From Escherichia phage vB_Eco_BCPEco_001, in the sequence record PV295200.1: a stretch of 64,000 bases of DNA. One strand, given 5' to 3'. The notes under the pieces were generated by a model. The model made no database searches and was not told where the DNA came from. It saw only the letters and a list, made by a program, of their open reading frames with translations. Numbering within the stretch: position 1 is the first letter of the stretch; every line of letters starts with the position of its first letter. This document shows, piece after piece, positions 24,070 to 25,978 of this stretch. The translations under genes were made by a program, and so were the position numbers.

Positions 24070-24142
24070 TGGGAATTAGCCAAGTTGGTAAGGCATAGCA
24101 CTTTGACTGCTAGATGCAAAGGTTCGAGTCCTTTATTCCCAG
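24070..24142 (+). tRNA. tRNA-Gln (anticodon UUG)
   Basis: Cloverleaf read by eye: acceptor tgggaat/attccca, anticodon loop ctTTGac, T-loop ggttcgagtcc. Confidence 0.8.
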
Positions 24143-24143
24143 C

Positions 24144-24230
24144 GCGAGAATGGTCAAATTGGTAAAGACACAGCACTTAAAATGCTGCGGAATGATTTCC
24201 TTGTGGGTTCGAGTCCCACTTCTCGTACCA
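24144..24230 (+). tRNA. tRNA-Leu (anticodon UAA), long variable arm, CCA encoded
   Basis: Acceptor gcgagaa/ttctcgt, anticodon loop ctTAAaa, T-loop gggttcgagtccc, 3' acca. Confidence 0.8.
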
Positions 24231-24236
24231 AAGTTT

Positions 24237-24308
<72 letters not shown>

Positions 24309-24320
24309 AAATTTAATTTA

Positions 24321-24394
24321 CTTCGTGTAGCTCAGTTTGGTAGAGCGTCTGCTTTGGGAGCAGAATGTCGCAGGTTCAAATCCTGCCGCGGAGA
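24321..24394 (+). tRNA. tRNA-Pro (anticodon UGG)
   Basis: Anticodon stem tctgc/gcaga with loop ttTGGga, T-loop caggttcaaatcctg; acceptor stem has G-U pairs. Confidence 0.75.
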
Positions 24395-24396
24395 CT

Positions 24397-24483
24397 GGAG
24401 GCGTGGCAGAGTGGTTTAATGCACCGGTCTTGAAAACCGGCAGTCGCTCCGGCGACTCATAGGTTCAAATCCTATCGCCTCCG
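24397..24483 (+). tRNA. tRNA-Ser (anticodon UGA), long variable arm
   Basis: Acceptor ggaggcg/cgcctcc, anticodon loop ctTGAaa, variable arm cagtcgctccggcgactc, T-loop aggttcaaatcct. Confidence 0.8.
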
Positions 24484-24490
24484 TAATTTC

Positions 24491-24563
24491 GCTGATTTAG
24501 CTCAGTAGGTAGAGCAACTCACTTGTAATGAGAAGGTCGGCGGTTCGATTCCGTCAATCAGCA
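24491..24563 (+). tRNA. tRNA-Thr (anticodon UGU)
   Basis: Acceptor gctgatt/aatcagc, anticodon loop ctTGTaa, T-loop cggttcgattccg. Confidence 0.8.
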
Positions 24564-24569
24564 TATCAA

Positions 24570-24641
24570 GGCCCTGTAGCTGGAAGGTTCAAGCAAGCGA
24601 CTCATAATCGCCAGATGGTGGTTCAATTCCACCCAGGGCCA
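24570..24641 (+). tRNA. tRNA-Ile (anticodon CAU, presumably modified to read AUA)
   Basis: Acceptor ggccctg/cagggcc, anticodon loop ctCATaa, T-loop tggttcaattcca; T4 is known to carry a CAU-anticodon tRNA-Ile. Confidence 0.75.
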
Positions 24642-24682: not shown

Positions 24683-25348
24683 ATGTTCTATTACATTTAT
24701 AAAATAACAAATAAAATTAATAATAAAATCTATATAGGCGCTCATTCTACCGAAAATTTAGATGATGGATATATGGGTTCTGGTAAATTATTAAAAAGAG
24801 CCCAAGATAAGTATGGTATAGAAAATTTTTCTAAAGAAATATTAGAGTATTTTGACGATAAAACCTCTATGTTTGAGTCAGAAAAGAATATTGTGGCTGA
24901 AGAGTTTTTAAAGCGCCCTGATGTTTATAATTTGAAATTAGGTGGTGAAGGTGGTTGGGACCATTTAAACACTAAAGAATATTTGGATAAAAAGAAAGAA
25001 GCTTCCTTAAAAGGAGCTGCCGCTTTTAAAACCAGATTTGAGAACGACCCAGACCTTAAAGAAAAATATCGTAAAATGGGTTCAGAAAGGTTTAAACAGC
25101 TTTGGGATAATCCTAAGTATAGAGAGAAATTTTTAAATACTAAATCTTTCTTGGGTAAGACCCATACTCCTGAAACTATTAATAAAATGAAAGAATCTCA
25201 CGCCAGAAATAAACACCAACAAGGTGAAAAGAATTCCCAATTTGGTATGATGTGGATTCATTCATTAGATGAAAAAGTTTCTAAACGTATTAAGAAAACT
25301 GACCCAATTCCAGAAGGATGGTTTAAAGGTCGAAAAATGAAATTTTAA
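24683..25348 (+). CDS. segB: GIY-YIG homing endonuclease SegB
   Basis: 221 aa inside the tRNA cluster; N-terminal YYIYKITNKINNKIYIGAHS...DDGYMGSG module. Confidence 0.8.
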   Translation: MFYYIYKITNKINNKIYIGAHSTENLDDGYMGSGKLLKRAQDKYGIENFSKEILEYFDDKTSMFESEKNIVAEEFLKRPDVYNLKLGGEGGWDHLNTKEYLDKKKEASLKGAAAFKTRFENDPDLKEKYRKMGSERFKQLWDNPKYREKFLNTKSFLGKTHTPETINKMKESHARNKHQQGEKNSQFGMMWIHSLDEKVSKRIKKTDPIPEGWFKGRKMKF

Positions 25349-25351
25349 TTA

Positions 25352-25428
<77 letters not shown>

Positions 25429-25439
25429 AACAAGAAGCC

Positions 25440-25790
25440 GGGTCGCTACCGGCAAGTCGTCGGACTGATGTTCCCTGAGTAAGGACTGGCATTAATAAAT
25501 CTTTATGTTTTGTTAATGCCCCCTTATATCACAGCAGAAACGGCGCACCGAATTATCGATTCGAGGAAATATCTTTGCCGTAAGCCGAGTAGCGTTTTTG
25601 ACGGAACGTTCGGATATGGTCAAGATATGGCCTTTTAAAAATATTGAGTAGCGTCAACTGCTTAATAACCGGGTTCGAATCCCGGCGTTTCGTACAAACA
25701 CTTGCCTTAGCAGGTGGAACCCCGACAAGGTTGCCGCAAGGCTCAGTCCCGACCGAAAGGTTGGGGCTTTTTAGTATCTAGGCCTTTCCG
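25440..25790 (+). ncRNA. structured GC-rich non-coding region, probable stable small RNAs (T4 species 1/2, rnaC/rnaD position)
   Basis: No ORF over 60 aa; GC-rich versus flanks; tRNA-like T-arm ccgggttcgaatcccgg; ends with hairpin plus T-run (ggttggggcttttt); follows tRNA-Arg as in T4. Confidence 0.35.
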
Positions 25791-25894
25791 GGCCTCTCTA
25801 GGCATCATTTAGTTTATACCCTTTATAATATATTATCCTACCTTTTAATTGCCCCTCCTGACCCTAGAATTCCCTAAAACTTTTTAAAAATTTT

Positions 25895-25936
25895 TTCACA
25901 AAACTGTTTACAAGACTGTTCTTCTATGGTACTATA
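25895..25936 (+). promoter_or_regulatory. early promoter (repeat family B, copy 1)
   Basis: TTTTCACAAAACT-GTTTAC, 18 nt, TG-g-TACTAT; about 48 nt near-identical to copies at about 40,900 and 43,044. Confidence 0.6.
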
Positions 25937-25978
25937 CAACTATCAACTACTGATACAGAAAACAACTTGGAGAACGAA

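Follow-up and report, generated by a model that had tools for sequence, protein, structure and literature searches.

Bacteriophage T4 makes two small stable RNAs, rnaC and rnaD (species 1 and species 2 RNA), which have been known since the 1970s. They are among the oldest sequenced RNAs without a known function, and this in the best-studied of phages. In the T4 genome (NC_000866), the order is tRNA-Arg, rnaD (71053-71171), rnaC (70908-71046) and then e.8. Two records of phage RB3 (AJ884578 and KM606994) also annotate rnaD (species II RNA) and rnaC (species I RNA) directly after tRNA-Arg. The species RNAs are co-transcribed with the tRNAs and transcription stops after species I (PMC2330249). 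A review of 2010 described the function of both RNAs as unknown (PMC3014915). An omics study of 2022 (PMC9697503) detected them in T4 by RNA-seq, classed them as late and also probed for RNAC on a northern blot. More recently, the same rnaD SNP appeared in all the lines of a T4-like phage adapting to ECOR34 (2025, PMC12685909). The preliminary description of the locus studied here had called the function of these RNAs undefined. This is still the case in the papers of 2010, 2022 and 2025, and the papers found up to 2025 report no function for rnaC or rnaD.

The locus belongs to Escherichia phage vB_Eco_BCPEco_001 (PV295200.1), of which a stretch of 64,000 nucleotides (hereafter, the window) was analysed. 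The region and its flanks are 100% identical to Shigella phage SHFML-11 (KX130861), a Tequatrovirus, in whose record nothing is annotated between tRNA-Arg and e.8, and thus neither rnaC nor rnaD. The gene order is that of T4: seven tRNAs, a segB homologue, tRNA-Arg, rnaD, rnaC and a terminator, with an e.8 homologue next (Table 1). The preliminary description had placed a structured element at 25440-25790, downstream of a tRNA-Arg and in the position of the T4 species 1 and 2 RNAs. The tRNA-Arg(UCU) is indeed the direct upstream neighbour. Base for base, the element can be aligned with both RNA genes annotated in RB3, and it is in synteny with rnaD and rnaC of T4; we therefore consider that the region holds the orthologues of T4 rnaD and rnaC, at the distal end of the tRNA-operon transcript and followed by a trailer and an intrinsic terminator. 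The family model R1 scores the rnaC of this phage and that of T4 almost equally (162.0 and 162.3 bits). The two rnaC sequences share position and length, and are 97-99% identical over the aligned columns, with few substitutions such as one G-U/A-U change in the 10-bp arm. Both rnaD sequences directly follow tRNA-Arg and have the same core helices and invariant loops, whereas the apical part of the hairpin differs from T4 and is nearer to RB3; the upstream tRNA-Arg also differs in sequence from that of T4. The element is already known, and the copy in this phage is another member.

Table 1 Features of the distal tRNA operon (positions in the window), with the divergent rnaD-like RNAs of other phages in the last line
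Feature	Position	Strand	Basis or remark
Seven tRNAs	24070-24641		ARAGORN and Rfam tRNA model
GIY-YIG homing endonuclease, SegB homologue	24683-25348	+	84% amino acid identity to T4 SegB over all 221 aa
tRNA-Arg(UCU), last true tRNA of the operon	25352-25428	+	ARAGORN; Rfam tRNA model, 73.2 bits
rnaD (species 2 RNA) orthologue, ~120 nt	25430-25550	+	Alignment to annotated RB3 and T4 rnaD; R2, 154 bits
rnaD hairpin 1, 5-bp stem GCCGG/CCGGC, 7-nt loop GUCGCUA	25437-25453	+	3/5 pairs covary; 100% of cells paired
rnaD internal loop, 5' strand GACUGA, invariant	25463-25468	+	Partner GAAA at 25537-25540; asymmetric
rnaC (species 1 RNA) orthologue, 140 nt	25557-25696	+	Alignment to annotated RB3 and T4 rnaC; R1, 162 bits
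rnaC acceptor-like stem, 7 positions	25557-25563 (CGAUUCG) with 25686-25692 (CGUUUCG)	+	Watson-Crick pairs formed in 100%
rnaC long arm, in the D-arm position	25564-25633	+	Length kept while sequence diverges
rnaC loop L1 UUGACG, apex of the long arm	25598-25603	+	Exact complement of L2
rnaC 10-bp arm, 6-nt loop L2 CGUCAA (25652-25657)	25642-25667	+	9/10 stem pairs changed on both sides
rnaC T arm CCGGG/UUCGAAU/CCCGG	25669-25685	+	Middle pair covaries (GC:12, UA:12, UG:1)
rnaC 3' tail U-ACA, in the place of tRNA N73-CCA	25693-25696	+	U-CCA in Marfavirus homologues
Conserved structured trailer	25697-25744	+	Alignment of relatives; fold z = -2.9
Intrinsic terminator of the tRNA operon	25745-25773	+	Terminator scan; kept in relatives
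Divergent rnaD-like RNAs with GACG loop	L004:402-511, L014:786-894, L030:6801-6910, L182:30-137, L179:747-883

The preliminary extent was right in that the region is structured, but its start had been set ten bases too far downstream: the 5' limit of the RNA region lies around 25430, and the transcript would end in the T run at 25769-25773. The other features that had been read from the DNA were recovered. The GC content is 0.43-0.505 over 25300-25900, above that of the coding flanks (0.265-0.36 taken together; 0.265-0.35 on the left, in segB, and 0.295-0.36 on the right). The longest + strand ORFs in 25430-25790, where no credible ORF had been seen, have 42 and 45 aa and TTG starts. The tRNA-like T arm is CCGGG-TTCGAAT-CCCGG, and the terminal hairpin with its T run is a GC-rich hairpin of 10 bp (25745-25768) followed by TTTTT. 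RNA folding, which had been proposed as a check, gave structures stronger than those of dinucleotide shuffles, with z = -3.5 for 25430-25550, -4.3 for 25557-25696 and -6.4 for 25429-25780, and no shuffle was as good in any of the three. A lack of conserved secondary structure across related phages had been named as evidence against an RNA element; on the contrary, both RNAs show strong covariation. The suggested search with covariance models found no Rfam family for rnaC or rnaD, either at gathering thresholds over the whole window or at E up to 10 in 25300-25950. In this latter search, the non-tRNA matches were all weak and far under their gathering scores, a tRNA-Sec match reached 16 bits, and ROOL, GOLLD, pRNA, Y RNA, hammerhead and the other curated Rfam families were not matched.

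The fold of rnaC was studied with RNAalifold and pair counts on 26 homologues (25 distinct) from Tequatrovirus, Mosigvirus, Karamvirus, Moonvirus, Kanagawavirus, Gelderlandvirus, Marfavirus and unclassified contigs. In the distinct sequences, 95.8% of the pair cells are paired, against 39-46% when the partners are slid by one to three columns. Changes on both sides were found at 32 pairs, and none of 500 shuffles reached the observed values. The comparison fixes the conserved fold of rnaC and, as described below, that of rnaD. The two ends of rnaC form an acceptor-like stem that reads, in order, C-G, G-C, A-U or G-C, two invariant U.U mismatches, C-G and G-C. Its five Watson-Crick pairs are formed in all the sequences and the third one covaries (GC:14, AU:11). 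The base that precedes the stem (position -1, 25556) is U here; among the 26 sequences, 21 have U and five have A. The strands of the long arm measure 33-34 and 30-33 nt in every homologue, although their identity to this phage falls to 22-32% in ten of them. An A-rich linker separates the long arm from the short one, which always has 10 bp among the homologues, and a single base separates the latter from the T arm. The T loop UUCGAAU is not universal, as phage CIP9 has UGCAUGC instead. The tail is U-ACA in 23 of the 26 homologues and U-CCA only in Marfavirus; therefore, in most phages rnaC would not be built for charging. A GAAA-tetraloop receptor in the long arm (CCGUAAG/UAUGG) was also considered and discarded, because the variation at this place fits a plain helix. 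From covariation and conserved lengths, rnaC can be described as a 140-nt tRNA mimic, with an acceptor-like stem and a canonical T arm, a long arm in place of the D arm and the 10-bp arm in place of the anticodon arm.

This architecture may be compared with those of other RNAs. Like the canonical tRNA (RF00005), rnaC has an acceptor stem of 7 bp formed by its ends and followed by an unpaired base, a T stem of 5 bp that carries the loop UUCGAAU, and the same spacing in arrays, but its acceptor stem contains two U.U mismatches. Against the usual definition of a tRNA, the acceptor stem made from the two ends and the T arm are present, whereas the cloverleaf with a D arm, the 7-nt anticodon loop and, outside Marfavirus, an encoded CCA are not. 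An acceptor stem and a T arm grafted on a body that is not that of a tRNA are also found in the tRNA-like domains of tmRNA and of the bacterial Y RNA YrlA, and these domains are handled by tRNA enzymes. Nevertheless, rnaC has no tag reading frame, and its topology differs in that a long arm replaces the D arm; ARAGORN reports no tmRNA.

The loops L1 and L2, at the tips of the long and the 10-bp arm, are a second conserved feature of rnaC. UUGACG and CGUCAA are invariant in 22 distinct sequences despite the free variation of the stems that carry them. In three Marfavirus sequences, G-C stands in place of A-U through a compensatory change (UUGGCG and CGCCAA), and the six pairs can be formed in all 25 distinct sequences (AU:22, GC:3 at the pair concerned). 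In IMG/VR, a search in which the two acceptor strands served as the sole anchors retrieved 28 true distinct copies of rnaC. All of them are in one of the two known loop states, and none of the 28 has a change on one side of L1 or L2 only. Among the metagenomic matches listed, mostly random ones, there was no further covariation between the loops. We estimate at ~0.003 the probability that one perfect complement arises by chance, given about 11 possible comparisons of 6-mers in three hairpin loops. The covariation corresponds to a single evolutionary event, in the Marfavirus clade, and the pairing of L1 with L2, deduced from the alignment, is therefore likely rather than proven. The fixed length of the arms, together with their free sequence, suggests that the spatial placement of the loops is important. 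Moreover, two arms of ~30 and 10 bp that leave the same junction could hardly bring their tips together, and an intermolecular pairing therefore seems at least as plausible as an intramolecular one. The L1-L2 contact would be one specific interaction that single point mutations could break and double ones restore, and it offers a testable lead on function.

Loop-loop contacts between molecules are known from other phage RNAs: ROOL, GOLLD and manA-type RNAs self-assemble by intermolecular kissing loops (PMC12286853; bioRxiv 10.64898/2026.07.01.735769). These RNAs and the pRNA of phi29 resemble rnaC in being phage RNAs of structural or unknown role, and ROOL and GOLLD are also found near tRNA islands. 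They have no sequence or model similarity to rnaC, which carries two mutually complementary loops on arms of fixed length; the pairing of these loops may occur within one molecule. Two minor observations concern the loop sequences. L1 contains GAC and L2 contains GUC, replaced by GGC and GCC in Marfavirus, so that the pairing looks like that of a codon with its anticodon (Asp, then Gly), lengthened to 6 bp; the likeness is probably a coincidence. In addition, the divergent rnaD-like RNAs of Karamvirus, Moonvirus and Kanagawavirus have first hairpins with different stems and the same GACG loop, complementary to the CGUC of L2. The match is of 4 nt only and may be due to chance.

The other RNA, rnaD, was compared in an alignment of 21 sequences. 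RNAalifold and pair counts gave 97.7% of the pair cells paired and nine pairs changed on both sides. A closing helix (P2) joins 25456-25462 to 25541-25548 (GUCGUCG with CGGCG(C)AC) and leads to the internal loop. Next comes a helix of 4 bp (P3, 25469-25472 with 25533-25536) in which one pair covaries (UA:13, AU:6, GC:1). Beyond P3 there are CCC opposite C, a short UGA/UCA helix, another helix and a variable tip. On this alignment, rnaD appears as a bent hairpin with a small hairpin on its 5' side and an invariant GACUGA/GAAA internal loop. The succession of CUGA and GAAA recalls the hammerhead ribozyme, a reading that was rejected on inspection: the candidates for N7-G8 form covarying Watson-Crick pairs, stem I is missing and there is no Rfam match. 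A pairing between the loop of hairpin 1 and GUAGCG in rnaC was rejected as well, as it is not conserved across lineages on inspection.

The distribution of rnaD is not that of rnaC. In Dhakavirus (JS10), Providencia phage PSTCR6 and Vequintavirinae, rnaD homologues are present and rnaC is absent; therefore, rnaC and rnaD are separate modules. Divergent relatives of rnaD, with scores of 21-42 bits, were found in Karamvirus, Moonvirus, Kanagawavirus and Marfavirus. Both RNAs can thus be seen as independent modules that travel in tRNA arrays, and the range of rnaD extends to Vequintavirinae. In these rV5-like phages, which lie outside Straboviridae, phage A5-4 has two rnaD-type RNAs (L006:1601-1710 and L006:2495-2623) and phage W70 has another (L009:2492-2601), each of them located after a tRNA that is missing from the annotation of the record. 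Outside phages, 69 matches to a 17-base pattern were found in bacterial genomes. This is close to the number estimated to occur by chance in 596 Gb, and none of the matches passes R2. Mimicry of a host RNA was another candidate, rejected since blastn found no match in 5,426 E. coli genomes.

The position of both RNAs in tRNA arrays bears on the way they would be made. In T4-like phages, rnaC lies 6 nt after rnaD; in other genera, tRNA-Trp or tRNA-Met precedes it by 5 nt and tRNA-Gly follows after 4-9 nt. Its spacing is that of a tRNA within the array, a "tRNA slot". For its part, rnaD begins 2 nt after the CCA of tRNA-Arg here. In 19 of 29 cases, a distance of 1-3 nt separates its start from the CCA of a tRNA (Arg, Asn, His, Met or Tyr). 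Elsewhere, an ORF has been inserted downstream of tRNA-Arg and rnaD directly follows its stop codon. In RB69 (L178:661-1005) and its equivalents (L011, L017, L019 and L022), an ORF of ~115 aa is located between tRNA-Arg and rnaD, and its stop codon abuts the first base of rnaD. The tRNA-slot spacing, the base before the stem and the stack of acceptor stem and T arm are what RNase P needs, and for this reason we infer that this enzyme makes the 5' end of rnaC. RNase P would cut between U(-1) and C(+1) of rnaC and free rnaD, whose 3' end would then be trimmed to the closing helix. The 5' end of rnaD would be left by the 3' maturation cut of tRNA-Arg, and the T loop of rnaC would be modified as in tRNA (T/psi). 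As a model with good support, both RNAs would be matured by the enzymes that process tRNAs, and rnaD would be released by the same RNase P cut that forms the 5' end of rnaC. Old work on T4, from the 1970s-80s, reportedly provides a further basis for the RNase P processing, the T/psi modification and the exact ends of the RNAs. Leaving function aside, the identity, architecture and biogenesis proposed here for rnaC and rnaD are very probably correct.

Several proposals can be made on function. T4 deletions that remove the tRNA region are said to be viable on laboratory hosts; therefore, any function of rnaC or rnaD would be conditional. The convergent rnaD SNP on ECOR34 hints at a host-specific function. 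A tentative possibility is that rnaC engages a tRNA-binding factor of the host or the phage, as a tRNA-like scaffold or decoy that cannot be charged; the L1-L2 pairing would then hold the RNA in a compact fold or link one molecule to the next, head to tail. More doubtful is the proposal that rnaC is self-associating. Through L1 and L2, dimers or larger particles would be assembled head to tail, each molecule with a non-chargeable tRNA-like head (the acceptor stem, T arm and ACA tail). Such a particle would trap or organise a tRNA-binding factor, such as a defence nuclease directed against tRNAs or an enzyme of tRNA maturation. If this were true, rnaC would be a small relative, in principle, of the assemblies of phi29 pRNA and ROOL/GOLLD/manA.

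The main rival to these proposals is that rnaC and rnaD are only cis-acting modules for processing and termination: spacers that keep the tRNAs folded, direct the cuts of RNase P and RNase E and end the transcript, and that persist as stable by-products devoid of any function in trans. This is possible, if on balance improbable. It would be congruent with the constant presence of both RNAs within tRNA arrays, at tRNA-like spacing, and with the start of rnaD at the exact start of the 3' trailer of a tRNA. The reported viability of the T4 deletions on laboratory hosts and some 50 years without a reported function also point in this direction. Nevertheless, a spacer has no need for invariant loops, for a 6-nt complement between loops held by compensatory change, for arms of constant length at 22-32% identity or for an invariant 6x4 internal loop common to Straboviridae and Vequintavirinae. 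The convergence on one rnaD SNP during host adaptation also speaks against a pure spacer.

Alternatively, rnaD could be a sponge or regulator derived from a tRNA trailer, which would pair with host or phage RNAs through its conserved single-stranded segments. The model for this would be 3'ETS-leuZ, an E. coli tRNA trailer fragment that titrates small RNAs. Like 3'ETS-leuZ, rnaD begins right after the 3' end of a tRNA, with the start 1-3 nt from the CCA in the 19 of 29 cases already mentioned. Its 5' tail is A-rich and single-stranded, the unpaired GACUGA, CCC and GAAA are invariant, and it moves between phage lineages as an independent module. Yet rnaD is larger than 3'ETS-leuZ and has neither a terminator of its own nor a U tail, which is what Hfq usually binds. 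Moreover, no sequence similar to rnaD exists in the 5,426 E. coli genomes and the internal loop differs in the divergent versions of Karamvirus and Moonvirus. We find this role for rnaD distinctly unlikely.

The annotation of related phages raises another question, namely whether rnaC could be a genuine tRNA of an unusual kind, or else a tRNA pseudogene in decay. In PG7, G9062 and G29, rnaC carries a tRNA label in GenBank (tRNA-Met, tRNA-Lys or tRNA-OTHER), the tRNA-Sec model matches it at 16 bits, and the canonical T arm, the 7-bp acceptor stem and the CCA end of the Marfavirus rnaC all go in the sense of a tRNA. The labels and the weak tRNA-Sec match have the same source: a fold in which the 5' side of the acceptor stem is taken by CGGAACG, an internal strand (25602-25608). 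We rejected this fold. It leaves 8 unpaired cells (90.5% paired), shows no compensatory change and breaks in the homologues with a diverged long arm; it is not the conserved fold, though it could form in Tequatrovirus. The structure behind the GenBank tRNA labels is accordingly not the one that comparison supports. In addition, ARAGORN and RF00005 call nothing in 25430-25790, rnaC has a variable region of 1 nt, an ACA tail and neither a D arm nor a 7-nt anticodon loop, and the 32 compensated pairs and invariant loops are not expected in a pseudogene. That rnaC is a tRNA or the remnant of one is very improbable. Finally, the idea that the region encodes small proteins, to which the + strand ORFs of 42 and 45 aa and the ORFs annotated over the homologous region in many phage records might lend some appeal, is hardly credible: the ORFs have TTG starts, the substitutions are compensatory for RNA helices, the ten homologues with 22-32% identity in the long arm keep arm length and pairing but not the reading frame, and the T4 products are known stable RNAs.

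Mis-annotation is widespread among the homologues of rnaC and rnaD, which appear in the records as "hypothetical protein" ORFs or under the labels tRNA-Met, tRNA-Lys and tRNA-OTHER. In the record of phage Marfa, a ribosome-binding site is annotated inside rnaC.

The trailer that ends the RNA region is located after rnaC, or directly after rnaD where rnaC is absent (JS10, L027). Its segment 25697-25733 is nearly invariant across Tequatrovirus, Dhakavirus and Mosigvirus. The terminator has a stem of 10 bp, a GAAA loop and UUUUU, and is annotated as "terminator" in several related records; in JS10-type phages, its stem contains two U.U mismatches. The CCCCGAC of the trailer (25720-25726) closely resembles the 5' side of the terminator stem and could pair with the terminator's 3' strand.

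Some further observations concern the neighbourhood of the RNAs. A mosaic junction is seen at the border between tRNA-Arg and rnaD (25352-25428 versus 25430 onward). The tRNA-Arg(UCU) has many differences from that of RB3 and by eye little likeness to that of T4; downstream of it, the RNAs are almost identical to those of RB3, and rnaC is as close to T4 as given above. The SegB homologue is encoded between the block of seven tRNAs and tRNA-Arg, and the junction may result from a SegB-driven exchange of the tRNA region. Downstream, on the - strand, an Rfam match to RT-6 at 25873-25938 (22.6 bits, for a gathering score of 46.7) overlaps a sigma-70-like promoter site at 25907-25935 on the + strand, upstream of the e.8 homologue; the RT-6 match is probably due to chance. 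Within the block of seven tRNAs, ARAGORN calls tRNA-Met(CAT) at 24570-24641 (+). Its T4 counterpart is annotated as tRNA-Ile, and the gene probably encodes a lysidine-modified Ile tRNA.
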